Assembly (NCBI RefSeq): GCF_004010195.1
Contig: NC_057717.1
Location: forward strand, 107,124,062 to 107,163,824
Direction of reading: 5' to 3'
Source: Chiloscyllium plagiosum
Lineage: Eukaryota
DNA: 39,763 nucleotides
Shown: piece after piece, positions 2,786 through 39,763 of the stretch
Position numbering within the stretch: position 1 is the stretch's first letter
Layout of the letters: every line of letters begins with the position of its first letter
Notes under the pieces: generated by a model
Told to the model about the DNA's origin: nothing
The model's database searches: none
Seen by the model: only the letters and a program-made list of their open reading frames with translations
Translations under genes and position numbers: made by a program

Positions 2786-2964
2786 CTGGATTAGTGGTGC
2801 TGGAAGAGCACAGCAGTTCAGGCAGCATCCAAGGAGATTTTGCCCGAAACGTCGATTTCGAAGCTCCTTGGATGCTGCCTGAACTGCTGTGCTCTTCCAG
2901 TGTGCTCTTCCAGCACCACAAATCCAGAATCTGGTTTCCAGCATCTGCAGTCATTGTTTTTACC
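2786..2964. mobile_element. Miniature palindromic Penelope-derived insert (family B terminal repeat) with 11-bp TSD
   Basis: Inverted arms ctggattagtggtgctggaagagcacagcagttcaggcagcatccaagga and its reverse complement. Flanked by cagtactgact at 2775-2785 and 2965-2975. Same sequence as 17160-17270 and 39627-39740. Confidence 0.85.
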
Positions 2965-3122
2965 CAGTACTGACTGTCTGTCTGTCAATTCCTGAAGAAA
3001 AGGAAGTTAGAAAGCAGGTTAATACACTCAGAACAGGAGTAGAACTGGATCTAAAAATTCTTTTGGGAAGATAAAAAAGAAAAAAAAATGTGTTTCTGTT
3101 CGCCGAGCTGGGAATTTGTGTT

Positions 3123-3162
3123 TCAGATGTTTCGTCCCCTGTCTAGGTGACATCCTCAGTGC
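3123..3162 (-). ncRNA. Minimal hammerhead ribozyme motif, family C
   Basis: Minus strand reads gca CTGAGGA tGTCaCCTagacAGGgGAC GAAAC ATC tg: core boxes plus stem II, with an AUC triplet instead of GUC. Confidence 0.65.
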
Positions 3163-3792
3163 TTGGGAGCCTCCTGTGAAGCGCTTCTGTGATGTTTCCT
3201 CCGGCATTTATAGTGGTTTGTATCTGCCACTTCCGGTTGTCAGTTCCAGCTGTCCATTGCAGTGGTCGGTATATTGGGTCCAGGTCAATGTGCTTATTGA
3301 TTGAATCTGTGGATGAGTGCCATGCCTCTAAGAATTCCCTGGCTGTCCTCTGTGTGGCTTGTCCTATAATAGTAGTGTTGTCTCAGTCGAACTCATGTTG
3401 CTTGTCATCTGCGTGTGTGGCTACTAAGGATAGCTGGTCATGTCGTTTCGTGGGACAAATAGGAAGACAGCTAACGGTCTGCATCCATGAACACCAACTA
3501 GCCACGAAACGACATGACCAGCTATCCTTAGTAGCCACACACTCAGATGACAAGCAACATGAGTTCGACTGAGACAACACTACTATTATAGGACAAGCCA
3601 CACAGAGAACAGCCAGGGAATTCCTAGAGGCATGGCACTCATCCACAGATTCAATCAATAAGCACATCGACCTGGACCCAATATACCGGCCACTGCAGCG
3701 GACAACTGGAACTGACAACCGGAAGCGGCAGATACAAACCACTATAAATGCCGGAGGAAACATCACAGAAGCACTTCACAGGAGGCTCCCAA

Positions 3793-3826
3793 GCACTGAG
3801 GATGTCACCTAGACAGGGGACGAAAC
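3793..3826 (+). ncRNA. Minimal hammerhead ribozyme motif, family C (cut by gap)
   Basis: gca CTGAGGA tGTCaCCTagacAGGgGAC GAAAC, then Ns. Confidence 0.65.
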
Positions 3827-4060
3827 NNNNNNNNNNNNNNNNNNNNNNNNNNNNNNNNNNNNNNNNNNNNNNNNNNNNNNNNNNNNNNNNNNNNNNNNNN
3901 NNNNNNNNNNNNNNNNNNNNNNNNNNNNNNNNNNNNNNNNNNNNNNNNNNNNNNNNNNNNNNNNNNNNNNNNNNNNNNNNNNNNNNNNNNNNNNNNNNNN
4001 NNNNNNNNNNNNNNNNNNNNNNNNNNNNNNNNNNNNNNNNNNNNNNNNNNNNNNNNNNNN

Positions 4061-4802
4061 GAGGGTCAGTGCTGTGGGAGTGCCACACTGTTGGAGGGTC
4101 AGTGCTGAGGGAGTGCCGCACTGTTGGAGGGTCAGTGCTGAGGGAGTGCCGCACTGTTGGAGGGTCAGTGCTGAGGGAGTGCCGCACTGTTGGAGGGTCA
4201 GTGCTGAGGGAGTGCCGCACTGTTGGAGGGTCAGTGCTGAGGGAGTGCCGCACTGTTGGAGGGTCAGTGCTGAGGGAGTGCCGCACTGTTGGAGGGTCAG
4301 TGCTGAGGGAGTGCCGCACTGTTGGAGGGTCAGTGCTGAGGGAGTGCCGCACTGTTGGAGGGTCAGTGCTGAGGGAGTGCCGCACTGTTGGAGGGTCAGT
4401 GCTGAGGGAGTGCCGCACTGTTGGAGGGTCAGTGCTGAGGGAGTGCCGCACTGTTGGAGGGTCAGTGCTGAGGGAGTGCCGCACTGTTGGAGGGTCAGTG
4501 CTGAGGGAGTGCCGCACTGTTGGAGGGTCAGTGCTGAGGGAGTGCCGCACTGTTGGAGGGTCAGTGCTGAGGGAGTGCCGCACTGTTGGAGGGTCAGTGC
4601 TGAGGGAGTGCCGCACTGTTGGAGGGTCAGTGCTGAGGGAGTGCCGCACTGTCGGAGGGTCAGTGCTGTGGGAGTGCCACACTGTCCGAGAGTCAGTGCT
4701 GAGGGAGTGCCGCACTGTCGGAGGGTCAGTGCTGTGGGAGTGCCACAATGTCCGAGAGTCAGTGCTGAGGGAGTGCCGCACTGTCGGAGGGTCGGTGCTG
4801 AG
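4061..4802. repeat. 33-bp minisatellite (gagggtcagtgctgagggagtgccgcactgttg)n, about 22 visible copies
   Basis: Near-perfect tandem copies; 11-aa periodicity (GSVLRECRTVG) in the ORF track. Confidence 0.97.
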
Positions 4803-4960
4803 ATATGAGATGGAAACGAAAAGCCTATTGATAACTCCCCGGTGGAGGTTTATAAACACAGGAGCTCCATTTGAAGAAGAGCAGTGGTATTTTCTCTCTG
4901 ATCTTGAGGTAATATTTCTCTCTCAGTCAGTATCATTGAACACTATATTATGATTGTCTT
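4803..4960 (+). mobile_element. Degenerate Deu-domain SINE body following the 33-bp array
   Basis: atgagatggaaacg...ggtggagg...atttgaagaagagcag...ttctc...aatattt resembles the DeuSINE (SacSINE1/AmnSINE) core as I recall it, and the copy at 38281-38600. Confidence 0.55.
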
Positions 4961-5249
4961 ACTCTTAATATTAATGTGGCGAGTGTCTTATCACATGTCA
5001 CAACAGGAACTAAACTTCAAAGGTATTCTGGATACCCAGAGAGTGAAAAAGGCAATGTAAATGAAGGCTTTCTTTTAAGTCAAATAAAATTAATATACTT
5101 ATCAAAAAGATTAAATTTTTAAGCCAGATGCAACAATGAAAGAGAGTAGTGGGGATTTGGAGACTGAAAACTTCATGAAAGTTCCCTCCTAAAATGTACA
5201 CAGTCTAACAAGTCACATCTTGTGTGTTTATGTGTTTCTGTGCCCTACA

Positions 5250-5620: not shown

Positions 5621-5736
5621 GAGAGAGTCCTGCCACCCCACTGAGACAGAAAAGAAAGTCTCATTAATGTCTTAGTTGTTTTCCTGAAGCCAGCAGTCTG
5701 CTTCCACTTTGCCTATTTGCACATACACAGTCCCCC

Positions 5737-5744
5737 TGACGTCA
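5737..5744. promoter_or_regulatory. Perfect palindromic cAMP response element TGACGTCA in a putative intronic PDE4 promoter
   Basis: Exact 8-mer in non-repetitive sequence 370 bp upstream of the FKRMLNREL exon. Mammalian PDE4 short isoforms are known to use cAMP-inducible intronic promoters. Confidence 0.55.
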
Positions 5745-6017: not shown

Positions 6018-6110
6018 GTGACAGCAGACACTGCCTCAAAACATTTGGGGATGAAAGAGGTGCTGAGCTGTTTGGGGTTAATGTTCATACCTTGCTCTTG
6101 TTCTCTATAA

Positions 6111-6212
<102 letters not shown>

Positions 6213-7607: not shown

Positions 7608-8111
7608 AAAACTGTACCCCAGTCACACTCAGCACCTTCAGGAGAGGGGAAACTGTACCCCAGCGAGAGGCTGCACCTTCAGGAGAGGGGGAAGTGTACC
7701 CTGGGGAGAGTCAGCATCTTCAGGAGAGGGGGAACTGTACCCTGGGGAGAGTCAGCATCTTCAGGAGAGGGGGAACTGCACCCTGGGGAGACTCAGCATC
7801 TTCAGGACAGGGGGAACTGTACCCTGGGGAGAGTCAGCACCTTCTGGAGAGAAGGGAACAATACCGGGGGGAGAGTCAGCACCTTCAGGAGAGGGGGAAC
7901 AATACCGGGGGGAGAGTTAGCACCTTCAGGAGGGGGGGAACTGCACCCCAGTCAGAGTCAACACCTTCAGGAGAGAGGGAACTGTACCCTGGGGAGAGTT
8001 AGCACCTTCAGGAGGGGGGGGAACTGTACCCCAGGCGGAGTCAGCACCTTCAGGAGAGGGGGGATTGTACCCTGGGGATAGTCAGCACCTTCTGGACAGG
8101 GGGAACTGTAC
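7608..8111. repeat. About 41-bp G-rich minisatellite (cagcaccttcaggagagggggaactgtaccctggggagagt)n, running into a gap
   Basis: About 12 diverged tandem copies visible. Confidence 0.92.
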
Positions 8112-9720: not shown

Positions 9721-10384
9721 TCTTATATTCTGTTCTTGGAGTGGGAGTAGTATTCTCAATGCCTTTACAGAGTGATGGGCACTGCAGGGGTTTCAGTGTT
9801 TTCTATCTCCTTCCAACTCCATTTTGATTTAACCCCCTCCCCCTGCTCCCTACCTCTGCCTTACCTTTGATGGTTTGTACTGCTCTTAATAGGCTTTATG
9901 TGCAATGTATTCAATTGGAAACACATTGACTGACTGGTTGTGATGATTAATCAAAAAGAAAAAGTGCACAGTGATTTGGTGATGAAAAGAAATTCAGTTG
10001 TGTGTGATAGGCACCTCTGGATAAATTAAAAAAGTATGGATCTGTAGAACAGTTTGTCCCAGAGTGGGATTAACCTGAGTAGTGGCTCTATTTTGGTGTT
10101 CAACAATAACTGATGTTCCTTTCCTGAGTTATTAACTGTCTCAACTCATTTGCTGTTGAAGCTCTCATCCACAGCACTGTTAGCTTTTAACTCGAGTATT
10201 CCATTGCATCTCTGGATGCTCTCCCACATTGTACACTCCATAAACTTGAAGTTATTCAAAACTCTGCTGCCTATCTTTGAAATCTGTGAGATTTATCTCC
10301 CTACCACCTGATGCACATTAGCTCCTAATCAAACAACACCATGATTGAGGTCATAGATTCATTCGCTGAGCTGATGTGTTTTTC

Positions 10385-10425
10385 TGCAGACGTTTCGTCA
10401 CCTCGCTAGGTGCATCGTCAATGCA
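10385..10425 (-). ncRNA. Minimal hammerhead-like motif, family D (UUGACGA variant)
   Basis: Minus strand: TGCA TTGACGA tg CACCTagcgAGGTG ac GAAAC GTC TGCA, with stem I TGCA/TGCA. Confidence 0.55.
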
Positions 10426-10766
10426 CTTCCTGTGAAGTGTTGGTGGTCTGTCCTACCTGGTATTTATGTGTCGCTGTTTTCTGGTAATTCTGTTCTGTAT
10501 CTAAGTGGTTTGTATATGGGGTCCAGTTCAATATGTTTATTGATTGAGTCCCAGTTGAATTTATGTTCTATATTGTAACCATCCTAACACAGGCAAAACA
10601 GACACACACAAGAGAATTCCTTGAAGCCTGGCACTCCAATCAGAACTCAATCAATAAACATGGAACTGGACCCCATGTATAAACCACTCAGATACAGAAC
10701 AGGATCACTAGAAAACAGCGACACATAAATACCTGGTGGGACAGATCACAAACGCTTCACTGGAGG

Positions 10767-10808
10767 CGCATTGACGAGGCCACCTCGTGAGTTGACGAAA
10801 CGTCTGCA
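10767..10808 (+). ncRNA. Minimal hammerhead-like motif, family D, decayed stem II
   Basis: cGCA TTGACGA ggccacctcgtgagttgac GAAAC GTC TGCa. Confidence 0.5.
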
Positions 10809-13800
10809 GAAAAACACATCAACTCGGCAAACAAATCTACGACCTCACCCACAACCCGAGTTACAATTCTTTTCAAAACCTCTAACATCATGATTTTAAA
10901 ATTCTCATTCTTGTTTTTGAAGACCTTCACAGCCTAGCTCTCTCCTTCCTCCAACCTCCAACCTCTTCATGTATCTGACAATTCTGAAAACACTTCAGAA
11001 AAGCTTTTGGTCATCTGACCTAATATTTTCTGATGTGACTTAGAGTCATTCTTCAATTGATGCTCCTGAAAACTGCCTTGGGACATTCCATTATGTAAAA
11101 TGTGCTACATAAATATAAGTTGTTGTTATACTTAATGTCTAGACAAGTCTTGAGTGGAGAAGCACTTTTGTAAATTTGTTCATGGAATATGATATTACTG
11201 GTCAACACTTAGTGCCAAATGCGAATTGACCTGGAGAAGGTGATGGCCAGGCACAATGACCTGGATGTTCTTGTTATGGACAATGGCTTAGATAATTCTG
11301 TGGATCTCACTGGAAAGTGTAGGTGTTAGGTAAGGACAGGAACAGGATCAGCAACAACACCTCTCTCCGTACAGCCAGACAGAATTTTATTCCTTCACAA
11401 TTTAGGTGAATGGAGCCATACCTCAGCAGACTTCAGGAAAGGAGGAAGAAGCATCAGTAGCAGGCTAAAACAATGAGAGGGTTAATGCTTCAGAGTCTGT
11501 GCCTTATTCCCCAAGCGAGTGCTCAATGCTGGAACACCATGACACAAAATCCTGTCTCTGATTAATTTCCTTGCTCTCGACATCTCTTCTGATTTATGGA
11601 AGCTGGGGCTGCTCAATAATAACTTTGATTCGTTTTTATTTTGCAATTTGTCAAAATGCATCACACAGATCTAAAAACAGCCTGAAACTAATCCCTGAAC
11701 AAGAGGCACTTTCGAAATTTCCTCAGCTGCAATTACCCGGAAACCTTTTAACTTATTTCCACAAAACTTGACAACGCAACTTGGATCAGACAGAATAACA
11801 GGACCACAATATCAAGTTCAATTCTTCCTGGTCCAGTTTGCATTCGAAAAGTTACTCCTTAACAAACTCCCTTGTTATCTGACAGAAACATTAAATCAAA
11901 ATCATGGAGATGTTGGAGAAGGTGTGCAGGGAGTCAGAAAACACCCAAAGACTGAGTTCACCAGAGACCCACTTGAGAACCAGATGTGTAAAGTGGGTGT
12001 TGTGGATAGTGCAGGTCAAATAGAAACCGAGAGACCATAAGGAAAAGGAGCAGGTGTTGACCATATGGGTGCTTAAGCCTACTCTGTCATTCAGTATAAT
12101 TGTGGCAGATCCCCTATCTCAACTCCACTTTCTCGCAAACTCTCCAAAATCCTCAATTCCCTGAGAAACAAAATATCTGTCTGTCCTCAGCCTTCAATGT
12201 ATTCAACAATGGAACATGAACAATCCTCTGGAAAAAGAGAAACCAAACACCTGCAACTCTTTGAGGGAAGTTATTTATCCTTATCTTAGTCTTAGTTCAA
12301 TTGTCCCTTATCCTGAGACTATTTCTTGTGTTCCAGCCATCCCAGCTAATGAAAACAATCTGTGTCTAACCTGTCAATCTCTCAGTATTTGGCTTGTCAA
12401 TCTTAGTGTTTACTCTGACGATTTCTCAGTGTCTTCTCTGTCTCTCAGTATCTACCCCATCAACTTCTGTGCCTACCCTGTCAGTCTCCCACGATACTCC
12501 CTGTCAGTCTCCGTGTTTACCTGTCCGTCTCTTAGTTTCTGTAAGACCATAAGGTATAGACCAGAAGACCCGAAGTGCCTGTTCCTGTGCTGTAAGGTTC
12601 TTTGTCCTTTGTATCTCGAAGCAGAATTAGGTGATCTGGCCCATCAAGCCTGCTCTGCCAATCCACTTCTGGCTGATATGTTTTTCAACCCCATTCTCCT
12701 GCCTTCTCCTCATAATGTTGAATCCCTTACTAATTAAGAATCTATCTATCTCTGCCTTAAATACACTCAATGACTTGGCCTCCACAGCCCTCCACATGAA
12801 CATCCATACAGTCACTATTCTTTGGCTGAGTAAATTCATTCTCATCTCAGTTCTAAAGGGTCATCCCTTCATTCTAAGGCTATGCCTTCTGGTCCGAGTC
12901 TCTCCCACGAGTGGAAATATCTTCTCCACATCCACTCTATCCAGGCCTCTCAATATTCTGTAAGTTTCAATGAGATTTTCCCCTCATCCTTCTAAACTCA
13001 ATCAAGTACAGACCCAGAGTCCTCAACTGCTCCTCATAAGACAGCCCTTCATTGCCAGGATCATTCTTGTGAATCCCCTCTAGATCCCCTCCAAGGCCAG
13101 CACATCCTTCCTTAGATACAGGCTCATAGTATTCCATATGTGAACTGACCAAAGCATTATTCAGCCTCAGCAGTAGATCTCTGCTCTTGTACTCTCACTC
13201 CCTCAAAATGAATGTTAACATTGCATTTACCTTCCTGACTGCCAATTGAACCTGCATGTTAACATTAAAAAGAATCCTGAACTCGGACTCCCAAATCACT
13301 TTCCAAAGCCTTTCCCCATTTAGAAAATAGTCTACACCCCTCTTCTTCCTGCCAAAGTGCATAACCTCTCACTTTATCACATTGTATTCCATCTGCACTT
13401 CTTTGCCCACTCTCCTGGCCTGTCCAGGTCCTTCTGCCGCCTCCTTGCCTCCTCAACACTACTTGTCCTTTAACCTATTTTTGTTAAGCTTAACAACAAT
13501 GCCTTCACTTCCCTTATTGAGGTCATTAATGCATAACATGAATAGCTGTGGTCCCAACATGGACCCTTGCGGAACTCCACTAGTCACCAGCTGTCATCCT
13601 GAAAAGACCCCTTTATCGCCACTCTCTGTCTTCTGCCAATCAGCCAATCCTCCATCCATACCAGTAGCTTGCCTCTAACACCATGGGCTCTTATTGTATT
13701 TAGCAGCCTCTTGTGCAGCACCTTGTCAAAGGCCTTCAGGAAATCCAACTAGATCATATCCACTGGATCTCCTTTGTCAAACTCACATGTTACTTCCTCA

Positions 13801-13872
13801 AAGACTTTTAACAAATTTGTCAGGGATGACCTCCCCTTGACAAAGCCATGCTGACTCAGTCCTATTTTACCA

Positions 13873-14213
13873 TGATTTGGAGATGCCGGTGTTGGACTGG
13901 GGTGTACAAGGTTAAAAATCACACAACACCAGGTTATAGTCCAACAGGTTTAATTGGGAGCACACTAGCTTTCGGAGCGACACTCCTTCATCAGGTGATA
14001 GTGGAGGACACAATTCTAAGGCACAGAATTTATAGCAAAAATTTACAGTGTGATGTAACTGAAATTATACATTGAAAAATACCTTGATTGTCTGTTGAGT
14101 CTTCATCTGTTCGAATACCATGATAGTTTCACTTCTTTCATGTGTAAATCACAAAACCCTTCTTTTTTAAAAGATGCATTCTCAGGTTAGCTGTAACAAT
14201 GAGTGTTAGCTAG
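13873..14213 (-). mobile_element. Penelope-like terminal repeat (family A)
   Basis: tgatttggagatgccggtgttggactgggg... shared with 16036-16330, 16417-16633 and 18779-18998. Confidence 0.8.
13963..13997 (-). ncRNA. Minimal hammerhead ribozyme, family A, intact core
   Basis: Minus strand: CAC CTGATGA a GGAGtgtcgCTCC GAAA GC TA GTG. Stem I CAC/GTG, palindromic AGCT stem III, CUA triplet. Confidence 0.75.
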
Positions 14214-16035: not shown

Positions 16036-16470
16036 TGATTTGGAGATGCTGGTGTTGGACTGGGGAGGACAAAGTTAAAAATTACACAACACCAGGTTAT
16101 AGTCCAACAGGATTATTTGGAAGCTCCAGTTTTTGGAGCCCTGCTTCTTCATCAGGTGGTTGTGGAGAATAAGATTGTAAGACACAGAATTTATAGCAAA
16201 AGGTTAACAGAGTGATGTAACTGAAATGATATGTTGAAAAAGACCTGGATTGTTTGTCAAGTCTCTCATCTTTTAGAATGAACATGTTGGTTTCACTTCT
16301 TTCATATGTAAATTGCAGAACGTTTTTAAAGTGAACTTTAACTTTGGTGTCATGTCAGCCCAGATAATGCACTGAAGGTGTGAGGTGCCCTGTGTGAGAC
16401 TGTGTCATAATGTTCAAAGTTAAAAATCACACAACACCAGGTTACAGTCCAACAGGTTTAATTGGAAGCA

Positions 16471-16505
16471 CACTAGTTTTCGGAGCAACGCTCCTTCATC
16501 AGGTG
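16471..16505 (-). ncRNA. Minimal hammerhead ribozyme, family A
   Basis: Minus strand: CAC CTGATGA a GGAGCgttGCTCC GAAA AC TA GTG. Confidence 0.65.
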
Positions 16506-16507
16506 AT

Positions 16508-16543
16508 CACCTGATGAAAGGACCGTTGCTCCGAAAGCTAGTG
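16508..16543 (+). ncRNA. Minimal hammerhead ribozyme, family A
   Basis: CAC CTGATGA aa GGAcCgttGcTCC GAAA GC TA GTG. Confidence 0.65.
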
Positions 16544-17060
16544 TGCTTCCAATTAAACCTGTTGGACTGTAACCTGGTGTTGTGTGATTTTTAACTTTGT
16601 ACACCCCAGTCCAACACCGGCATCTCCAAATCATAATGTTCAGGCTGATTCTAATCTAAAAGATGGATTTACAGAACCTTACATGGATTTATGCAGTTTT
16701 TGAGCAAAATAAAATTTAATTCTGCAAACATAGATTCACCCCACAAACTTGTGTGTTTGTGTGTGTGTGTGTGTGTTGATGAGTGTCTGTATGTGTGTAA
16801 GTATGAGTGTAAAGGGGTATAAGTCTGTAAGAGGGTGTGTGGGAGTGTATGTGTGAGCATATGGGAGACAGTTTGTGCATGAGAGACGGTCTGCATAAGT
16901 GTCTGTGTCTGTAGGAGTATGTGTGCGTAGGAGTGCCTGTGTGTGTGTGTGCGTGCAGTACAGTGGGGTCACCTGTAGTGTGACATGAACCCAAGGTCCT
17001 GGTTGAGGCCATCCCCATGGGTACCGAACTTAGCTATCAGCCTCTGCTTGGCCACTTTGC

Positions 17061-17270
17061 ATTCCCCATTGTACTCTATGCTACTTTCTCCCCACCCCCA
17101 CCCTCTTCTCACTTATCTCTCCACGCTCCAGGCTCACTGCCTTTATTTTTGATGAAGGGCTTTTGCCCGAAACGTCGATTTCGAACCCTTGGATGCTGCC
17201 TGAACTGCTGTGCTCTTCCAGCACCACTAATCCAGAATCTGGTTTCCAGCATCTGCAGTCATTGTTTTTA
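17061..17270 (+). mobile_element. Solo family-B Penelope-like terminal repeat with hammerhead-like motif (17149-17176) and 9-bp TSD
   Basis: TTGATGA aGGGCttttGCCC GAAAC GTC; TSD ccactttgc at 17052-17060 and 17271-17279. Confidence 0.8.
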
Positions 17271-18030
17271 CCACTTTGCGTTGTTGCCTGACCCAAAGTC
17301 TGCCTTGGAGGATGGTCACCCGAAAGTCCGAGGTCGAATTTCCTGGACAGCTGAAGTGTTCTCCGACTGGGAGGAAGCACTCCAGTCTGTTGATTGTTGT
17401 GCGGTGCGCATTCATCTGTTGCCGTAGCCTCTGCTCTGTCTCGCCAATGTGCTATACCTCGGGGCATCCTTGCCTCCAGCTTTTGAGATAGACAATGTTG
17501 GCTGAGTCGCATGAGTACCTGCCATGTACACGGTGGGAGGTGTCCTCACGCGTAATGGTGGTATCCGTGTTGACACTCTGAGACATCTTGTAACGTCTAC
17601 TGTGACACGGTTGTATGGTGTTGTCCTGAGATTCGTAGCAAACTGCCCGGCTTTTAGGACAATACCACGTGTCATGTTAGATGTTGCAAGATGTGTCAGA
17701 TTGTTGACACGGTTACCACAAGTAAGCATGGGGACACCTCCCACCATCTACATGGCAGGTACTCATGTGACTCAGCCAACGTTGTCTATCTCATACATTG
17801 CAGGCAAGGATGCCCTGAGGTATGGTACATTGGTGAGACCAAGGAGAAGCTACCTCAACGGATGAATGGACACCTCACAACAATCAACAGACAGAAGTGC
17901 TCCCTCCTAGTCAGAGAACACTTCAGCGGTCTGGGAAATTCGACCTCGGACCTTCGGGTGACTGTCCTCCAAGGCGGACTTTGGGACAGGCAACAACGCA
18001 AAGTGACCGAGCAGAAGCTGATAGCCAAGT

Positions 18031-18776
18031 ACCAAAATTGGAGGTGTAGTGGACAGCGAAGAGGGTTACCTCAGATTACAACAGGATCTGGACCAGATGG
18101 GCCAGTGGGCTGAGAAGTGGCAGATGGAGTTTAATTCAGATAAATGCGAGGTGCTGCATTTTGGGAAAGCAAATATGAGCAGGACTTATACACTTAATAG
18201 TAAGGTCCTAGGGAGTGTTGCTGAANNNNNNNNNNNNNNNNNNNNNNNNNNNNNNNNNNNNNNNNNNNNNNNNNNNNNNNNNNNNNNNNNNNNNNNNNNN
18301 NNNNNNNNNNNNNNNNNNNNNNNNNNNNNNNNNNNNNNNNNNNNNNNNNNNNNNNNNNNNNNNNNNNNNNNNNNNNNNNNNNNNNNNNNNNNNNNNNNNN
18401 NNNNNNNNNNNNNNNNNNNNNNNNNNNNNNNNNNNNNNNNNNNNNNNNNNNNNNNNNNNNNNNNNNNNNNNNNNNNNNNNNNNNNNNNNNNNNNNNNNNN
18501 NNNNNNNNNNNNNNNNNNNNNNNNNNNNNNNNNNNNNNNNNNNNNNNNNNNNNNNNNNNNNNNNNNNNNNNNNNNNNNNNNNNNNNNNNNNNNNNNNNNN
18601 NNNNNNNNNNNNNNNNNNNNNNNNNGATGGATATATGAATAGGAAGGGTTTGGAGGGATATGGGCCGGGTGCTGGCAGGTGGGACTAGATTGGGTTGGGA
18701 TATCTGGTCAGCATGGATGGGTTGGACCGAAGGGTCTGTTTCCATGCTGTACATCTCTATGACTCTATGACTCTAT
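18031..18776 (+). mobile_element. 5'-truncated CR1 LINE spanning a gap, with (GACTCTAT)n tail
   Basis: Translation DSEEGYLRLQQDLDQMGQWAEKWQMEFNSDKCEVLHFG; tail ctctatgactctatgactctat. Confidence 0.9.
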
Positions 18777-18913
18777 AACTGAAACCAACATGTTCATTCT
18801 AAAAGATGAGAGACTTAACAAACAATCCAGGTCTTTTTCAATATAATATTTCAGTTACATCACACTGTAAACTTTTGCTATAAATTCTGTCTTACGATCT
18901 TATATTCCACAAC

Positions 18914-18948
18914 CACCTGATGAAGGAGCAGCGCTCCAAAAGCTAGTG
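18914..18948 (+). ncRNA. Hammerhead motif, family A, core GAAA mutated to AAAA
   Basis: CAC CTGATGA a GGAGCagcGCTCC aAAA GC TA GTG. Confidence 0.55.
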
Positions 18949-18999
18949 CTTCCAAATAAACCTGTTGGACTATAACCTGGGGCTGTGTGATTTGTAACT

Positions 19000-19340
19000 G
19001 TAAACATTCCTGTTGCCTTCTATCTCCCTAAACGTATCACCTCACACTTTATGTGTAATCCCCCCCATCTGCCATTTCTTCGTCCACCCTTCCAACTGAT
19101 CTATATCCAGCTGCATCCTTCGATAACCTTCCTCACTATCTACAGCTCCACTAATTTTCTTGTCGTCTGCAAACTTACTAATCAGATCAGCTACGTTTTC
19201 ATCCAAATCATTTATATATATATCATAGACAACATAGGTCCGAGCACTGATCTTTGCTGAACACCACTGGTCACAGACCACCAGCCAGAAAGCACCCCTC
19301 CACAATTACCTTCTGTCTTCTAAGGCCAAGGCAATTTTGA
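19000..19340 (-). mobile_element. CR1 LINE RT fragment
   Basis: ORF 19042..19305 IYINDLDENVADLISKFADD. Confidence 0.85.
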
Positions 19341-19714
19341 GTCTTGAGCCTTTTATGATTTTGATAGGCTGGAATCTTAGGTGATTCAATGTTTGTTGGG
19401 GAGAGACTCCGTCTCACAAACTTATGTTGGTAGGTCATTTAAGAATAATGAACTAACAGAATAAACTGGAACAATAGGTGAATGAACTTTCAATAGCCTG
19501 ACAGAACATAATCAATGTGTGAGTAGGTTAGCCTCCAATTGGGTTGCCTGTTCTAGAGTTCATTAAGTTGACTACTCCCTGAATCATACTATCATTTATT
19601 TAGATATTAGGCAGAAAAGAGTGCATTCTGGATCAATGTTTGGCCTAAAATTTTCTATCCACGTGAAAAATATTCTGGCGCTCATATAACAAGCAACATG
19701 CACCACCCGTAAGA

Positions 19715-20170
19715 ATATCAGAAACAGAAACAGGATTGTGCCACTCGGCCCCTTGAGCCTGCCCTGCCATTAAACAAGATCAGGGTTGATCTGTTCCAGG
19801 GCTCCATTCCTTTTGCTCACCAGCTCTCCATAGCCCTCAACTCCTCAATAAATCAAAAATTCACCCGTCTTTAAATACTTTCAGTGATCTAACCTCCTCA
19901 ACTCTCTGTGCTAGAGAATCCCAGGTTTTCACGATGTTCTGACAGAAGGCATTCCTTCACATCTCGGTTTTAAATGAGCACTCCTTTATTCTGTAACTCG
20001 GTCCCCTAGCTTCAGATTCCTGCACCCGATCAAGCTCCCTCAGAATCATGTATATTTCAATAAGATCACTTCTCATTCTTCTTAACTCAAAGGAATAAAA
20101 CACCTAACCTGTTTAATCCTTCATGATAAGTCAATTCTTTCCTCCTAGGTATCAGCCTAATGGAATTCTT
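19715..20170 (-). mobile_element. Old CR1-type 3' fragment
   Basis: taagaatatcagaaacag...gccactcggccccttgagcctg reversed tail signature. Confidence 0.6.
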
Positions 20171-20894
20171 TTCAGATTATATACACGTAAAATATATTTT
20201 TACATGAAAAATAAGGAAAGAATCTCACCCCAAGCTATTGGCACAGTAACATGCTAATCCACAATTTATAAGGCTTATGAATTTAATTTTAAATTTACCT
20301 TTGTGGCAGTTGAACTCATGACCTTTCTGTTTTAAGCTCTGTACTATAACCACTGCTAGCTATTACTATGCATGTGAAAGGTATTAGTTGTCGTAGTTGT
20401 GGGTATATTTGCTGAGCTGGTGAGTTTTTATATTGCAGCTTGTATTTTAGCATATCTTATATTTTTTAATTCTTTCATGAGATGTATATGTCACTGGCAA
20501 GCCTCGTACTTGCTGCCCAACCTCAATTGCAATGGAACAGAATGACTTGTTAGAATATTTCAGAGGGCAGGACGGAATCAACCATATTGCTGTGGGCTTG
20601 GAATCGCATGTAGGCCAGATCAAGTAAAGATTTCAGATTTCAGTTCTTGTCACCCTGCTATAGGAAGATTGCTATTAAATTCGGAAAGGGTGCAGAAAAG
20701 CTTTGTAAGGGTGTTAATGGGATTGGAGGATTTGAGCTGTGAGGAGAGGATGGATAGGCTGGGACTTATTTCTCTGGAGCCTGGGTTGAGGGGTAACTTG
20801 CGAGTCATACTGCTATACAGCATGGAAACAGTGCCTTCGGTCCAACTCACCCATGCCGACTAGATATCCTAACTAAATCTCGCCCCATTTAACA

Positions 20895-22630: not shown

Positions 22631-22822
22631 CACTTGGCCCATATCTCTCTAAACCCTTCCTACTCATATACTCATCTGGTTGCTTTTTAAATGTTGTAAT
22701 TATACCAGGCTTTACCACTTCCTCTAGGAGAAAGTGAGGACTGCAGATGCTGGAGATCAGAACTGAAAATATGTTGCTGGAAAAGCGCAGCAGGTCAGGC
22801 AGCATCCAAGGAGCAGGAGAAA

Positions 22823-22855
22823 TCGACGTTTTGGGCATGAGCCCTTCTTCAGGAA
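22823..22855 (-). ncRNA. Hammerhead motif, family B, GAAA mutated to AAAA
   Basis: Minus strand: ttc CTGAAGA aGGGCtcatGCCC aAAAC GTC ga. Confidence 0.5.
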
Positions 22856-24214
22856 TGAGGAAAGTGTGCCAAGCAGGCTAAGATAAAAGGTAGGGAGGAG
22901 GGACTTGGAGGAGGGGCATTGGAAATGTGATAGGTGGAAGGAGGTTAAGGTGAGGGTGATAGGCCGGAGTGGGGTGGGGGCGGAGAGATCAGGAAGAAGA
23001 TTGCAGTTTAGGAATGTGGTGCTGAGTTCAAGGGTTGGGACTGAGACAAGGTGGGGGAGGGGAAATGAGGAAACTGGAGAAATCTGAGTTCATCCCTTGT
23101 GGTTGGAGGGTTCCTAGCCGGAAGATGAGGCGCCCTTCCTCCAGCCGTCATGTTGCTATGGTCTGGCGATGGAGGAGTCCAAGGACCTGCATGTCCTTGG
23201 TGGAGTGGGAGGGGGAGTTGAAGTGTTGAGCCACGGGGTGGTTGGGTTGGTTGGTCCGGGTGTCCCAGAGGTGTTCTCTGAAACATTCNNNNNNNNNNNN
23301 NNNNNNNNNNNNNNNNNNNNNNNNNNNNNNNNNNNNNNNNNNNNNNNNNNNNNNNNNNNNNNNNNNNNNNNNNNNNNNNNNNNNNNNNNNNNNNNNNNNN
23401 NNNNNNNNNNNNNNNNNNNNNNNNNNNNNNNNNNNNNNNNNNNNNNNNNNNNNNNNNNNNNNNNNNNNNNNNNNNNNNNNNNNNNNNNNNNNNNNNNNNN
23501 NNNNNNNNNNNNNNNNNNNNNNNNNNNNNNNNNNNNNNNNNNNNNNNNNNNNNNNNNNNNNNNNNNNNNNNNNNNNNNNNNNNNNNNNNNNNNNNNNNNN
23601 NNNNNNNNNNNNNNNNNNNNNNNNNNNNNNNNNNNNNNNNNNNNNNNNNNNNNNNNNNNNNNNNNNNNNNNNNNNNNNNNNNNNNNNNNNNNNNNNNNNN
23701 NNNNNNNNNNNNNNNNNNNNNNNNNNNNNNNNNNNNNNNNNNNNNNNNNNNNNNNNNNNNNNNNNNNNNNNNNNNNNNNNNNNNNNNNNNNNNNNNNNNN
23801 NNNNNNNNNNNNNNNNNNNNNNNNNNNNNNNNNNNNNNNNNNNNNNNNNNNNNNNNNNNNNNNNNNNNNNNNNNNNNNNNNNNNNNNNNNNNNNNNNNNN
23901 NNNNNNNNNNNNNNNNNNNNNNNNNNNNNNNNNNNNNNNNNNNNNNNNNNNNNNNNNNNNNNNNNNNNNNNNNNNNNNNNNNNNNNNNNNNNNNNNNNNN
24001 NNNNTCCCCTCCCCCCACCTTGTCTCAGTCAAATCCCTCGAACTCAGCACTGCCTTCCTAACCTGCAATCTTCTTCTTGATCTCTCCGCCCCCACCCCCA
24101 CTCCGGCCTATCACCCTCACCTTAACCTCCTTCCACCTATTGTATTTCCAACGCTCCTCCCCCAAGTCTCTCCTCCCTACCTTTTATCTTAGCCTGCTTG
24201 GCACACTCTCCTCA

Positions 24215-24248
24215 TTCCTGAAGAAGGGCTTATGCCTGAAACGTCGAT
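24215..24248 (+). ncRNA. Minimal hammerhead ribozyme, family B, intact core
   Basis: ttc CTGAAGA aGGGCttatGCCT GAAAC GTC ga; predicted cleavage after C24245. Confidence 0.7.
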
Positions 24249-24384
24249 TCTTCTGCTCCCTGGATGCTGCCTGACCTGCTGCGCTTTTCCAGCAACACAT
24301 TTTCAGCTTTACCACTTCCTCTGACAGCTCATTCCATACATGCACCACCCTCTGCATGGAAAATGTTGCCCATTCGGTCCCTTT

Positions 24385-24752
24385 TAAATCTTATAGAGGT
24401 ATATAAAATTGTGAGGGGCATAAATAAGGTGAATAGCAAAGGTCTGTTCCCAGTGATAGGGGAATTCAAAACTTGTGCGCATAGTGTAAGGTGAGAGGGG
24501 AAAGATTTAAAAGGGATCTGAGGGGCAACATTTTCATGCAGAAGGCGGTGCATATATGGAATGAGCTGCCAGAGGAGGTGGTAGATGCAGGTACAATGAC
24601 AACATTTAAAAGACATTTGGACAGGAACATAGATAGCAAAGGGTTAGACGGATATGGGCCAAATGAAGACTAATAGTTCATTTTGGGAAAACTGGTTGAC
24701 TTGGATGAGTTGGAACAAAGGTTCTGTTTCTGTGCTGCATGACTACGACTCT
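24385..24752 (+). mobile_element. CR1 3' fragment
   Basis: LIEVYKIVRGINKV...RGERFKRDLRGNIF...WNELPEEVV translation and tail. Confidence 0.85.
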
Positions 24753-29856: not shown

Positions 29857-30850
29857 CATTGATTGATTGATTGATTTATTGTCACGTGTATTGAGGTACA
29901 GTGAAAAGCTTTGTTTACGAGCAGTACAAGCAGATCATAGTAAGCAAGGATGTGCAGATCAAAAAGACTTAGACAGAGGCATATACAGGTTACACTGCAC
30001 AGGGTGTGCGCTAGGTGAGATCATTAGCACGATCAGCTTTAATTGAGGCTAGATAGTCCATTCATCAGTCTAATAACTGGTGGGGAGAAGCTGTTCCTGA
30101 ACATGCTGGTGCATTTGTTCAGGCTTCTGTGACTTCTGCCTGACAGAAGAGGTTGGAGAAGATCATTATCAGAATATGATGGGATTTTGATGATATTGGC
30201 AGCAAGCCATGTAAATGGAGTCCATGGATGGAAAGTTGGCTTCTGCGATGGTCTAGGCTATGCAAACCACCTTCTGTAGTTTCTTACAGACCTGGACAGA
30301 GCAGTTGCCATTCCAGGCCGTTATGTACCTGGTCAGTTTACTCTCAATGGTGCATCTGTAGAAGTTGGTGATGGTCCTTATGGACATGACAAATTTCCAG
30401 AGCTGCCTGAGGAAAAAGAGGTGTTGTTGTGTTTTCTTGACCGTCGCATCTATGTGGAAAGTCCAGGACAGGTTGTTGGCTATCATCACTCCGAAGAACT
30501 TGATACTCTCAACCATTTCAACCTCAGCTCCATTGATGTAGATGGGGGCGTGTTCTTCTCCCTTTTTCCTAAAGTCAATAATCATTTCTTTAGTTTTGCC
30601 AACATTGAGAGAGAGGTTGTTATCATTGCACCACATCACCAAGCCCTTTATTTTCCTTCTGTATTTTGACTCATCATTGTTAGATATTGTACAACTACAG
30701 TGGTGTCATCAGTGAACTTGTAGATGGCGTTCTTTTGGAATTTAGCAACACAGTTTTGGGTGTACAGGGAGTACAGGGGGCTGAGGACATATCCTTGGGG
30801 ACTCCAGTGTTGAGTATTATTGTGGAGGAAGTGCAGTTACCTATCTTCAT
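29857..30850 (-). mobile_element. Rex1/Babar-type LINE 3' fragment with (ATTG)n tail
   Basis: ORF WCNDNNLSLNVGKTKEMIIDFRK...FYRCTIES (DUF1891-like region); attgattgattgattg at the 3' end. Confidence 0.85.
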
Positions 30851-34762: not shown

Positions 34763-35004
34763 TCATTCTAATCTTATTTAAAATGACCAATAATTCTTCA
34801 TCTCCTTCTCCAGTTTTATGGTTTAGTTTGAGAGACCGTAATATAATGAGACTATATATGTGCTTCAGGGTCTTATTGTCCAATGGTTCTAATGGAAGTA
34901 CATGGCAATTAATGTCCTGGAAATGAATTTAAAAATGTGCACTGAAGACGAGATCAAATCTGTGCAAGTGCATTGTGTGCCATTATTCTGGTCATAGCCA
35001 GACA

Positions 35005-36686
35005 ATGTACAGAGTCCCAAAGCCCAGCATGTACAAAGTCCCAAAGCCCAGTGTGTACACGGCCCCAAAGCCCAGCATGAACACAGCCCCAAAGCCCAGC
35101 GTGTACACTGCCCCAAAGCCCAGTGTGTACGCAGCCCCAGAGCCCAGTGTGTACACAGCCCCAAAGCCCAGCATGTACACAGCCTCAAAAGCCCAGCATG
35201 TACACAGCCCCAAAAGCCCAGAGTGTACACAGCCCCAAAGCCCAGTGTATACACAGCCCCAAAGCCCAGTGTGTACACAGCCCCGAAGCCCAGTGTGTAC
35301 ACAGCCCTGAAGCCCAGTATGTACACAACCCCAAAGCCAGAGCGTACACAGCCCCAAAGGCCAGTGTATACCCGGCCCCAAAGCCCAGCGTGTACACAGC
35401 CCCAAAGCCCAGTATGTACACTGCCCCAAAGTCCAGCATGTACACAGCCCCAAAGCTCAGTGTGTACACAGCCCCAAAGCCCAGTGTGTACACTGCCCCA
35501 AAGCCCAGAGTGTACACAGCTCCAAAGCCCAGTGTGTACACAGCCCCAAAGCCCATGTGTACACAGCCCTGAAGTCCAGCGTGTACACAGCCCCAAAGCC
35601 CAGTATGTACACTGCCCCAAAGTCTAGCATGTACACAGCCCCAAAGCCCAGTGGGTATACAGCCCCAAAGCCCAGTGTGTACATAGCCCCCAAGCCCAGT
35701 GTTTACACGGCCCCAAAGCCCAGCATGTACACAGCCCCAAAGCCCAGCGTGTACACAGCCCCAAAGCCCAGTGTGTACATGGCCCCAACGCCCAGCATGT
35801 ACACAACCCCAAAGCCCAGCGTGTACATGGCCCCAAAGCCCAGTGTGTACACAGCCCCAAAGCCCAGTGTGTACACTGCCCCAAAACCCAGCGTGTACAC
35901 AGCCCCAAAGCCCAGTGTGTACACTGCCCCAAAACCCAGTGTGTACATAGCCCCAAAGCTGTGTGTACACTGCCCCAAAGCCCAGTGTGTACACTGCCCC
36001 AAAGCCCAGCGTGTACACAGCCCCAAAGCCCAGTGTGTACACAGTCCCAGAGCCCAGCGTGTACATGGCCCCAAAGCCCAGTGTGTACATGGCCCCAAAG
36101 CCCAGCGTGTACATGGCCCCAACGCCCAGCATGTACACAACCCCAAAGCCCAGCGTGTACATGGCCCCAAAGCCCAGTGTGTACACAGCCCCAAAACCCA
36201 GTGTGTACACAGCCCCAAAGCCCAGCGTGTACACTGCCCCAAAGCCCAGCGTGTACACAGCCCCAAAGCCCAGTGTGTACACTGCCCCAAAGCTCAGTGT
36301 GTACACTGCCCCAAAACCCAGCATGTACAAGCCCCAAAGCCCAGTGTGTACACTGCCCCAAAGCCCAGCGTGTACACAGCCCCAAAGCCCAGTGTGTACA
36401 CAGCCCCAAAGCCCAGCATGTACATAGCTCCAAAATCCAGCGTGTACACAGCCCCAAAGCCCAGTGTGTACACTGCCCCAAAGCCCAGTGTGTACACAGC
36501 CCCAAAGCCCAGTGTGTACACTGCCCCAAAGCCCAGTGTGTACACTGCCCCAAAACCCAGCATGTACACAGCCCCAAAGCCCAGTGTGTACACTGCCCCA
36601 AAGCCCAGCATGTACATAGCTCCAAAATCCAGCGTGTACACAGCCCCAAAGCCCAGTGTGTACACAGCCCCAAAGCCCAGTGTGTA
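35005..36686. repeat. 24-bp minisatellite (agccccaaagcccagtgtgtacac)n, about 70 copies
   Basis: Tandem copies; 8-aa periodicity YTAPKPSV in the ORF track. Confidence 0.97.
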
Positions 36687-37256
36687 TCAATTAAACACTT
36701 AATGCCAAAGTTTGCAAAAAGATGGTAAAATGATAATATAAAAGGCCTGTATCTGACAAAGCACACTATTTGTGACAAGGTCAACAAATGAGTGACATCT
36801 CCACCGATAAAAATCAATGTGTATGATAGGGACATCATTGCTGGGTAACCAGATTTGTGAACTGAATATTGACTCCTTGATAAGATAGGAAGCTACAAAA
36901 CTGGTGGGGTAGCTTTGTAAATTAAGGATATAGTACAATAGTGAGAGGCAACTGTTTCCTAACAGTAGTTAACTGCAGGACATGGTATAAAGGGAAAAAT
37001 GAAGAGGGCACATACAAACAATACCTCAATACAGTAATCAGGATGACTTTAGTCTACATGTGGATGGGAAAATCAGATAAAGCTCGTGGAGTGTATTTGG
37101 GACACTTTCTTTGCGGAATGGGCAAAAGAAAGTAAGAAAATGATGGAGGGAAAAAAAAGATATTTTGTGCCAGTCCTCACTGGTAGATTTTTGACAAAAA
37201 CTCTCAAAATTACTCAAAATTCAAGAGGTGAGTCAGAACTTAATAGAATAACCATC

Positions 37257-37605
37257 ACCATAGAATTTGTACAATGTGGAAGGAGGCCATTTAGCCCATC
37301 GAGTCCACATCAACTTTCCGAAGAGCAACCCACCTAGATCCCCACCATATCCCATAACCCCACATCTCCCATGACTAATCCACCTAGCCTGCAAACCCCT
37401 GAACACAATGGGCAATTTAACGTGACCAATCCACCAACCTGCACATATTTGGAATGTGGCAGGAAACCGAGCATCCAGAGGAAACCCACACAGACACAGG
37501 GAGAACATGCAAATTCCACACAGACAGTCGGCTGAGGGTGGAATCAAACCCAGGTCCCTGGTGCTGAGAGGCAGCAGTGCTAATCGCTGAACCATCACAC
37601 CACCC
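37257..37605 (-). mobile_element. tRNA-derived V-SINE (HE1-like)
   Basis: Reverse complement resembles 34416-34762 (gaggaaacccacacagacacagggagaacatgcaaattccacacagacag). Confidence 0.88.
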
Positions 37606-37689
37606 ACCAGGGAAAAGGCTAAACCGTAAACAAATCCCAGAAACAGTTGCCTGCACCCTGTTGTCTTAAAAGAAATGAATGCAAAGATG

Positions 37690-38120
37690 GGGGACAGACT
37701 GTAACCTTCCAAAATTCCTTAGGTTCGGGAAGGGTCCCAGCTGCTTTGGACAACAGTTAATGTATCAATTCCAGTGAAAAAAGGAGAGAGAGACACCAAG
37801 CAAGAAACTATATCCAGTTAGTTTAACATCAGTCATGGGGAAACTGCTAGGATCCATTACTGAGTTTACTTCAAAAACTTTGTGAAATGTAAATTATTAA
37901 TCAATTTATTAGAGGTAAGGAAATAACAAACAAGGTGGATAAAGGGTAATCTGTAGATTTGTTGTTCTTGGATTTTTAAAAGGCAAGAGTCCTGAGTTTA
38001 TAGAGGGGAGGACTGGAAAGTAGAGTTGAGAGTACAATCAGAATAACCTTGATCTTATTGGTTAGTAGCATAGGTTCAAAGGGTCGAATGGCCTACTTCT
38101 GCTCCTAATTTTTATGTTTA
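37690..38120 (+). mobile_element. Decayed, internally deleted CR1 fragment
   Basis: NY.PV.LTSV.GKLL and FLDF*KA-like remnants plus tail gggtcgaatggcctacttctgctcctaat. Confidence 0.6.
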
Positions 38121-38280
38121 CATAGCTCCGATGCTGAAATGTCCACAACACTGAACTCAAGTTTGTAACACTTCCCCTGCTCCACTAATATAGGCGCAAT
38201 ATATATTTGTTCATTTACCTAGAAACACTAACAAACAGTTAAACAAATGGACAGCAGCTACAACACAGAAACAGCCAATT

Positions 38281-38600
38281 TGGCTGACACTCCAGTACAA
38301 TAGTAAGGGAGTGCTGTACCTCTGGAGGTATTGTCTTTCAGTCAGGTCCCGACTGCATAGTAGCTCCCTCGGGCGAACGCAAGAAATCCCACGGTGCTAT
38401 TTCTTAAAGAGCAGGAGAGTTCTCCGCAGGTTTCAATATCTATCCTTCAATCCACACTGGAGCAGATTTATCATATTGGTCGTTAGTGCACTGTTGCTTG
38501 TGGGATCTTACTATGCACAAAATGACTTGTGTGCTTTATGCACCACAACAGCAACCACACTTTAAGCAGGATTTTTTTGAGTGTAAATTACTCTGAGACC
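38281..38600 (+). mobile_element. Deu-domain SINE (SacSINE1/AmnSINE-like), degenerate
   Basis: gctgacactccagt...agggagtgctg...gtcttt...aatcccacgg.gctatt..aagagcaggagagttctcc...ttgcttgtgggatctt.ct.tgcacaa. Confidence 0.7.
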
Positions 38601-38819
38601 GAGACAAATTAATATCTCTGACACACATCGAGTGCGGCTCTGTGTTAGCCTTGTGTTCCTTGTGATAGGATTCATATACTTTGTCGCTTGCTGCATGTTG
38701 TCACTGAGTACAGCTGTTACACCTCAACAATCACACCACAATAACAATCTCTGGTGTTTCCATCCCATATTCATCGCATTAGCTCTCATATGAGGGAAAC
38801 TCATATGACAGCTTGACTG

Positions 38820-38953
38820 TCAAGGGGATCAAGGATTATGGGGAGAAAGCGGGACAATGGGGTTGAGAAACTTATCAGCCATGATTGAATGGCGGAGCTG
38901 ACTCAATGGGCTGAATGGCCTAATTTCTGCTCCTATGTCTTATGGTCTTATGG
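38820..38953 (+). mobile_element. CR1 3' tail
   Basis: atgggctgaatggcctaatttctgctcctatgtcttatggtcttatgg. Confidence 0.8.
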
Positions 38954-39626
38954 CTCACTTGGATGAAGAGTCACAGCATTAACTATTTATGCAATCTGTC
39001 CCTAGTGGAGTTAGCATCTTCTGAAGGAAGGGGAGATCATGAGAGAAAGAAACGTTCATATAAGAAAGATAGCTAAACCTGGAATGCTAAGTGATTAAAG
39101 TTACCAGGAGTTACTTAGGTGTGAAGGATGATACAGACATTGATACCCAAGATCAGTACTCATCTGCTTTACAGAACTGCTGCTAAACCGGCTGTATATG
39201 CAACACACCTACCATTGCACTTTAACATGTTACCCAATCCCTATCACCAAACAGGATGTCATCAACAAATGACTTCAACATTAAGCTATTTTTGCCTGAC
39301 ATTTGTCAGCCCCAAACAAACAACCTTTCTATTTCTGGGCCTATAGTTAACGAATGTGAGGATTTAATTCTGAGTAAACGAGTTGACTGAAACATGTTTA
39401 AAGCTAAGGCTAGAAACTGAACACAACACAGAACTTCAACAAAGAGTGCCATTAATGGAGATGACAAAACTAGTTGCACAGAAAGCTGGAAGCTTTCTCA
39501 GATTGAAACACAACAGGTCTGATTTCCACATGGCAGGCATGTTATTTGAAGATGGAGGAATTCCAGACACTATGTGTGTTACTGCATATTTCTGAAACCT
39601 TGTGTCACTCTCAAGGTGCCACTCAG

Positions 39627-39763
39627 GTAAAAACAATGACTGCAGATGCTGGAAACCAGACTCTGGAGTAGAGTGGTGCTGGAAAAGCACAGCAGTTCAG
39701 GCAGCATCCGAGGAGCAGGAAAATCGACGTTTCAGGCAAAAGCCCTTCATCAGGAATACAGGC
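39627..39763 (-). mobile_element. Family-B Penelope-like terminal repeat with intact hammerhead core at 39724-39756; runs off the window end
   Basis: Minus strand: ttc CTGATGA aGGGCttttGCCT GAAAC GTC ga; homologous to 17140-17270. Confidence 0.82.

Follow-up and report, generated by a model that had tools for sequence, protein, structure and literature searches.

In a 39,763-nucleotide stretch of the Chiloscyllium plagiosum genome (NCBI RefSeq assembly GCF_004010195.1, contig NC_057717.1, positions 107,124,062 to 107,163,824 of the forward strand; hereafter the window), which carries an exon of a PDE4 gene, we find 14 motifs that are very probably minimal type I hammerhead ribozymes (min-HHRs), situated in the 3′ untranslated region/pseudo-long terminal repeat (pseudo-LTR) region of canonical, endonuclease-positive (EN+) Penelope-like elements (PLEs). 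The motifs fall into four sequence families (A–D), the copies of which are each the 3′ end of a 5′-truncated PLE. The min-HHR class was published in 2014, and the families described here are further members of it. No publication on these particular families was present in the literature searched; the supplementary species lists of the 2014 report (PMC4209133) may include cartilaginous fish families.

An initial annotation, made from the letters of the window, had proposed about 14 such motifs. All 14 were located where it had placed them, by self-BLAST of the window together with direct reading of the sequence, and they exceed chance expectation. A loose pattern (CTGANGA-N8-30-GAAA) matches the window 14 times against 3.26 expected, a number reached in none of 100 shuffles. 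Eight of these rows (seven sites) fall within the copies described here; the other six (2043, 2992, 14984, 30989, 33043 and 34125) lie outside all self-BLAST repeat families and are at about chance level. A strict min-HHR descriptor of our own (the core, a helix II of at least 3 bp, zero or one unpaired base, complementary 15.2/16.2, U16.1 and H17) gives three matches in the window, compared with 0.01 on average over 200 random windows, and four when as many as two unpaired bases may precede helix II.

The class assignment rests on features that go beyond the descriptor used in the published search. Four of these are given in PMC4209133 (Cervera and de la Pena 2014): families with covarying stems, an extra base after A9, a G10.1-C11.1 pair, and a palindromic 15.2-16.2 step. 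For comparison, families A, B and C were each represented by 30 copies fetched from the genome together with 1.5 kb of flanking sequence, and the features were counted in the core-intact copies of the window and these loci, anchored on the core by script; a MAFFT alignment of 50 unique motifs misaligned families of unequal helix II length and was excluded from the counts. The extra base, the G10.1-C11.1 pair and the palindromic step are present at the family level; the stems change on both sides between lineages but show no covariation within a family. The conserved core (C3 U4 G5 A6 N7 G8 A9, G12 A13 A14, A15.1, U16.1 and H17) is likewise complete at this level. An A follows A9 as the unpaired base in 34/35 copies of family A and 35/35 of family B; in family C the base is U (23/23), as it is in family D. 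The G10.1-C11.1 pair is kept in 27/35 (A), 35/35 (B) and 22/23 (C) copies. The tetramer A15.1-N-N′-U16.1 is AGCU throughout family A (35/35) and ACGU throughout families B (35/35) and C (23/23), with 15.2-16.2 being GC, CG and CG, respectively; the palindromic tetramer that the initial annotation had seen in place of helix III is thus confirmed.

Away from these positions the families differ in sequence and retain their pairing. In helix II, the majority pair at 10.2-11.2 is GC in families A and B and UA in family C; at 10.3-11.3 it is AU (A), GC (B) and CG (C); and at 10.4-11.4 it is GC or C.C (A), CG (B) and A.G (C). In helix I, 2.1-1.1 is CG in families A and B and AU in family C, 2.2-1.2 is AU (A), UA (B) and CG (C), and 2.3-1.3 is CG (A), U.U (B) and GC (C). 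Overall, 22 of the 24 family-by-pair cells are paired, and six of the eight pair positions are altered on both sides between lineages. These core-anchored counts bear out the earlier observation that the helix II sequences differ among the families yet pair. The grouping into four families also stands, but their independence does not: majority states of C and D are identical at 37/41 hammerhead positions, compared with 20/38 upstream and 23/36 downstream, and the four differences in the hammerhead affect one base of a stem, two of the loop and N7. C and D are therefore related, leaving three lineages rather than four independent ones. Family D is old; among 20 fetched genome copies, which are 77–86% identical to the window copy, 17 have C at position 3, indicating that the T shared by D1 and D2 arose privately in that inverted pair.

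The sequences adjoining the motif connect it to a retroelement. In each of families A, B and C (30 loci each) there is one sharp 3′ end, and coverage declines steadily 5′ of the motif, a pattern typical of 5′-truncating, target-primed reverse transcription when read on the hammerhead sense strand. An inverted partner lies no more than 130 nt away in at least 11 of the 30 family A loci, and upstream inverted partners are present in 7/30 family B and 10/30 family C loci. Among the first 100 exact family C motifs listed, 12 pairs within 1 kb are in minus-then-plus order and none is in the reverse order. Within the window, self-BLAST reveals a head-to-head inverted pair at least once in each of families A, B, C and D. 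Approximately 16 of 30 family A copies carry a 3′ extension of about 35 nt.

Coding remnants lie upstream of the motif. In family C, matches to the reverse transcriptase (RT) domain RVT_1 are found in three fetched copies (L079, E 2.8e-8; L072, 1.6e-6; L085, 2e-3), each followed by a GIY-YIG-like segment (VVYKIPC..C...YIGQTGR). In family B, GIY-YIG is recognised in L055 (E 4.1e-5; 24.2 bits against a Pfam cut-off of 22.6) and L032 (E 4.1e-3). In family A, L022 and L010 show the tail joined to an open reading frame (ORF) that matches the endonuclease ORFs of families B and C (tblastn, E 9e-11 to 3e-6), and over 380 nt upstream of the motif L022 is colinear with L012. The arrangement observed is a single ORF in which the RT precedes a C-terminal GIY-YIG endonuclease, with the motif positioned about 100–450 nt 3′ of the end of the endonuclease ORF, on the same strand; all RT and endonuclease frames are broken in the fetched copies. 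The window has its own remnants of this ORF (Table 1). The pieces at 17266–18044 share 68% amino-acid identity with the tail-linked family A ORF of L022, although Pfam makes no call on them; their C-terminus resumes at 16972–17058 (−), the minus arm being interrupted by copy B2 (17139–17272), which has inserted into this older endonuclease-coding inverted pair.

These results agree with the Penelope-like origin suggested by the initial annotation, for which the upstream RT/GIY-YIG remnants, the insertion anatomy and the family-level hallmarks all argue. PLE insertions are described as strongly 5′ truncated, with an inverted 5′-truncated copy adjoining the 5′ end, and as bearing a 30–40 bp tail, often at one end only; they are also noted as a source of assembly trouble (Craig et al. 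2021, PMC8557442). The 5′ truncation, the adjacent inverted 5′-truncated copy and the 30–40 bp tail are all observed here. The order of RT and GIY-YIG domains and the insertion anatomy are those given for the canonical EN+ PLEs (Penelope/Poseidon and Neptune; Arkhipova 2006; PMC8557442), from which the window differs in containing no direct pseudo-LTR tandem or full-length element. By eye, a cluster of cysteines of CxxC type precedes the GIY-YIG domain in families A and B, as described in Neptune and Nematis, and is absent from family C. The ribozymes resemble the PLE min-HHRs described in PMC4209133 in being type I, in lacking helix III and loop 3, in the palindromic 15.2-16.2 step, the G10.1-C11.1 pair and the short helix I, and in having one unpaired base between A9 and 10.1. 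They resemble them also in occurring as several sequence families per genome beside an RT-endonuclease ORF, mostly as single truncated copies together with opposite-strand pairs 100–700 bp apart. Helix I is 2–3 bp here, whereas it is 4–5 bp in Schistosoma (PMC4209133).

In the mechanism proposed for such motifs in the literature, two of them would pair through the palindromic tetramer to form a double hammerhead, within which each core would cut the partner strand after H17. Cutting of this type would process multimeric or read-through element transcripts, and the element's protein or host factors would probably assist. The suggestion in the initial annotation that the motifs cleave as dimers is the same as the published proposal. 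Lunse, Weinberg and Breaker, writing in RNA Biol in 2017, are also said to have addressed dimer cleavage of min-HHRs (cited in PMC6765202).

The motifs are abundant. The 3.56 Gb genome contains 3,987 exact matches to the family C motif, 17,503 matches to a family A pattern and 87,506 to a family B pattern (with the loop left free), and reversed-pattern controls for the three families give no matches. The resulting total of 108,996 core-intact copies, obtained with three narrow patterns (exact and IUPAC), is a lower bound. In comparison, PMC4209133 gives about 9,000 min-HHRs in Xenopus tropicalis and about 4,000 in the coelacanth; the number in this genome is more than 10 times higher, though the descriptors differ. 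An estimate from the density of motifs in the fetched flanks (11 cross-family strict matches in 166,896 bp) suffers from clustering bias and was replaced by the whole-genome counts. The youngest family A subfamily (GGACC, with a mismatched helix II) had seemed dominant among the BLAST-selected loci, a view that was dropped, as paired GGAGC is present in nearly all of the first 100 pattern matches listed.

The window copies have lost much of what the families retain (Table 1). The whole conserved core is kept in six of the 14, and every feature in one, A1. Five of the changes (in A5, B3, B4, B5 and C1) are transitions at the two CpGs of the motif, C11.1-G12 and C15.2-G16.2. A3 and A4 form a head-to-head pair, in which A4 has a tail extension of about 30 nt and A3 has none; C2 is head to head with C1, and B4 with B3 across a run of Ns. 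The copies are most likely dead-on-arrival fragments which are decaying neutrally, in part at these CpGs; most are mutated and probably inert.

Table 1. Positions of hammerhead copies, endonuclease remnants and the PDE4 exon in the window
Feature	Extent	Hammerhead	Strand	State or evidence
A1	13872..14149	13966-13994	-	Sole window copy with every feature intact
A2	16036..16313	16127-16155	-	Decayed: G12>A and other changes
A3 (arm)	16411..16507	16474-16502	-	Core intact; 15.2 G>A, palindrome lost
A4 (arm)	16508..16634	16511-16540	+	Core intact; two unpaired A and C.C mismatch in helix II
A5	18777..18999	18917-18945	+	G12>A; AATAAA at 18954-18959
B1	2782..2964	2838-2853 (+), 3′ half only		Family B inverted pair joined inside the hammerhead
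B2	17139..17272	17149-17176	+	C3>U
B3	22739..23288	22825-22852	-	G12>A; runs into N run 23289-24004
B4	24005..24306	24218-24245	+	Core intact; C11.1>U (G.U)
B5	39626..39763 (window end)	39726-39753	-	Core intact; C11.1>U (G.U)
C1 (arm)	3085..3477	3126-3159	-	Core intact; 16.2 G>A (ACAU), palindrome lost
C2 (arm)	3478..3826	3796-3826	+	Ends after GAAAC at N run 3827-4060
D1 (arm)	10346..10549	10389-10421	-	C3>U
D2 (arm)	10645..10847	10771-10804	+	C3>U; altered helix II
GIY-YIG ORF remnant upstream of B3	23187-23288		-	E 5e-18
Endonuclease C-terminus remnant, C1	3269-3451		-	C1 and C2 remnants, E 1e-32 and 1e-40
Endonuclease remnant, C2	3447-3686		+	C1 and C2 remnants, E 1e-32 and 1e-40
Endonuclease remnant, D2	10557-10661		+	E 1e-7
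Head-to-head pair of family-A-related GIY-YIG endonuclease pieces	17266..18044			E 3e-56 and 3e-48
PDE4 UCR2 exon	6113-6207		+	AG acceptor, GTAAGT donor; PDE4_UCR match 6099-6206, E 1.1e-14

Transcripts of the families were examined in reads from a same-species poly(A) single-cell run (of which about 2% was read) and three other runs, mapped on 16300–24400. The PLE pieces are covered on both strands, at a mean depth of up to about 200; the unique intron stretch at 19281–20635 is at or near zero. Two sets of poly(A)-tailed reads (188 and 263; 451 together) carry untemplated A after 18972/18975, and 217 more do so at the mirrored position, 16446 (the minus-strand site spanning 16446–16468). These ends lie 13–16 nt past a polyadenylation hexamer (AATAAA at 18954–18959 in A5, ATTAAA in A3 and A4) and about 30 nt beyond the predicted hammerhead cut site. 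The untemplated A at the read ends indicates that family A carries a used poly(A) site directly behind the hammerhead, the reads themselves possibly originating from any genome copy of the family.

Several observations weigh against the PLE min-HHR assignment and should be set beside it. Rfam gives no match at gathering thresholds and no hammerhead family among the 11 matches with E up to 10; the Rfam hammerheads (types I, II and III, HH9 and HH10) share the catalytic boxes CUGANGA and GAAA with our motifs. Rfam hammerhead models include helix III and loop contacts, and the silence is presumably due to the missing helix III. Inside a family, the stems either do not vary or contain mismatches with no compensating change: C.C at 10.4-11.4 in 15/35 family A copies (a biased sample), A.G at the same position in 23/23 family C copies, and U.U at 2.3-1.3 in family B. 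The 30 loci per family are the best BLAST matches to the window copies and not a random sample. The join of the family A tail to an ORF is seen in only two of 30 loci, at E < 0.01 Pfam does not recognise GIY-YIG in the ORFs of families A and C, and self-BLAST and ORF scans of the window find neither a direct pseudo-LTR tandem nor a full-length ORF. Minimum-energy cofolding of two copies does not yield the double hammerhead, a 4-bp intermolecular helix being beyond what nearest-neighbour energies favour. Finally, read starts and ends do not pile up at the cut sites in 16300–24400, in a poly(A) single-cell library that cannot capture cut products, and 312 reads span the family A tail, the whole motif and the usual upstream sequence (loose end 16507) uncut.

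Some of these points would suit a different origin for the short copies, chiefly those of family A, namely as non-autonomous hammerhead retroposons (retrozyme- or SINE-like, that is, resembling short interspersed nuclear elements) mobilised in trans by PLE proteins. Non-LTR retrozymes of animals were reportedly the subject of work by Cervera and de la Pena in 2020 (PMC7229834). Such elements are also type I, have a weak palindromic helix III that needs a second copy, and are related to PLE pseudo-LTRs; a 2026 preprint argues for their derivation from PLE pseudo-LTRs and reports them in the one chondrichthyan that it sampled. Most copies here are shorter than 300 nt, and the scarcity of family A tail-ORF joins points the same way. 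However, retrozymes are head-to-tail tandem arrays yielding small circular RNAs, whereas the copies here are scattered or inverted, and they are colinear with elements that carry an ORF. The window has no head-to-tail hammerhead tandem arrays; its tandem arrays, at 1–740, 4061–4802, 7609–8111 and 34998–36690, contain no match to the motif. The 5′ ends of the copies are graded rather than fixed, window copies of families B, C and D run directly into endonuclease coding sequence, and L022 and L012 show the 380-nt colinearity upstream of the family A motif. We consider the retroposon origin improbable. Less probable still, to the point where we give it hardly any weight, is an origin of the palindromic units as fold-back DNA transposons, as miniature inverted-repeat transposable elements (MITEs) or as assembly artefacts, with a centre that only looks like a hammerhead. 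Near-perfect palindromes do exist at 16411–16603, 3129–3826 and 17272–18005, two of the units abut N runs (3827 and 23289), and Rfam scores the 16458–16556 hairpin as microRNA-like; the weak matches concerned (MIR845_1 and mir-3118) were rejected as microRNAs, since it is the inverted repeat pair which is being scored. Against a fold-back origin, single arms are commoner than pairs, arm lengths vary with the outer (3′) end fixed, the pairs at many loci are always joined 5′ end to 5′ end, the arms encode RT and endonuclease remnants, and three unrelated lineages share one motif architecture.

Having assigned the motifs to the 3′ ends of PLEs, we can consider the suggestion in the initial annotation that sense-strand copies (placed there at 16508, 24215 and perhaps 3793) would be transcribed in a PDE4 pre-mRNA and could cut its intron. 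A PDE4 exon is indeed present, as supported by the PDE4_UCR match and by splice-site reading, and its orientation makes + the sense strand of the host gene. The contig has one other PDE4_UCR exon (C8:106986444-106986566, −), at a distance of 144 kb and in the opposite orientation. A genome search found no PDEase_I catalytic exon on the contig of the window, and three catalytic-domain matches lie on a small contig, C99572. This suggests that the PDE4 gene is mis-oriented or fragmented in the assembly; the extent of the intron around the hammerhead copies is accordingly assumed.

It is very unlikely that active sense-strand copies (with hammerheads starting at 16511, 24218 and perhaps 3796) cut the PDE4 pre-mRNA, alone or by pairing with copies of the same family. 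The idea does draw on the exon lying upstream of these copies on the + strand, on the retention in A4 and B4 of all conserved core bases and of the palindromic tetramer, on the proximity of same-family + strand copies (A5 at 2.4 kb and B2 at 7 kb), and on the occurrence of family transcripts in poly(A) RNA. Each candidate copy is nonetheless compromised. A4 is sequestered with its inverted partner A3 in a 96-bp hairpin (−162.1 kcal/mol, compared with −49.3 for shuffles; z −25.9), and its helix II contains two unpaired As and the C.C mismatch. In B4, a G10.1.U11.1 pair replaces the conserved G-C, and the complementary antisense copy B3 lies 1.4 kb upstream; the cleavage site of C2 is hidden by Ns. 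The possible partners A5 (G12>A) and B2 (C3>U) are mutated in the core, and the other + strand copies are no better placed, with C3>U in D2 as in B2, and the 5′ half absent in B1. In the RNA, no reads end at 16540/16541 or 24245/24246 (poly(A) single-cell reads, from a library which cannot capture cut products), unique intron stretches are at about zero depth in the run examined, and the downstream PDE4 exons are not on the contig, such that the intron is not fully established.

Published work on related ribozymes points in the same direction. Single min-HHRs show no detectable cleavage in vitro, and dimers show low cleavage (PMC4209133). A lizard Poseidon PLE is reported to cleave only when its own protein is present; mutating the core did not affect insertion, and RNA-seq showed no ends where the cut would fall (PMC11167929). 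In Xenopus, tandem hammerhead retrozymes are described as depleted from introns (Li, Clavereau and Pollet 2026 preprint). The claim that the sense copies cut the PDE4 intron is therefore not upheld, on account of the hairpin, the weakened pair, the N run and the core-mutated partners, and the PDE4 transcript is most likely unaffected by any ribozyme activity of the window copies. A broader role is also conceivable, in which 10^5 or more min-HHRs, many of them genic and in sense orientation, would act as a diffuse RNA-processing layer (with 24218 and 16511, for example, cut after pairing in trans with same-family transcripts), or in which the family A module would be a transcript-ending cassette truncating PDE4-like pre-mRNAs; we regard this as highly speculative and give it very little credence. 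If true, such a cassette would have ATTAAA/AATAAA behind its hammerhead and, some 30 nt past the cut site, a poly(A) site.

The other reverse transcriptases of the window are unrelated to the hammerheads. Pfam searches of its 209 ORFs of at least 55 amino acids return only RT pieces resembling those of long interspersed nuclear elements (LINEs). These are frame-shifted LINE fragments at 20984–22310 (−) and 30256–30836 (−) (RVT_1, E 5.4e-27; ALKBH8_N-like tail, E 1.2e-10), with RT pieces at 21753–22310 and 30651–30836 and the ALKBH8_N-like piece at 30256–30705; we take the RT fragments to be of CR1/L2 type. The RT lying just downstream of B3 was considered as a part of that copy and rejected, since its motifs are LINE-like rather than PLE-like. 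The tandem arrays have self-match offsets of about 33 bp (the array at 4061), 41 bp (7609) and 24 bp (34998). The N runs at 3827–4060 and 23289–24004 are directly beside or between inverted PLE arms (C2, and B3/B4, respectively), which fits the assembly trouble attributed to such insertions in PMC8557442, although the Ns may instead represent withheld sequence.

The importance of these findings beyond annotation is limited. For annotators, the abundant short, often hairpin-shaped repeats of this genome are PLE tail ends, and not microRNA precursors, SINEs or MITEs, and inverted PLE pairs would explain the assembly gaps beside them. For those working on hammerheads or PLEs, interest lies in the very large number of core-intact min-HHRs that three narrow patterns recover, and in the two CpGs built into the motif, which account for five of the disabling or weakening changes in the window and through which copies scattered over a methylated vertebrate genome may be rapidly inactivated.

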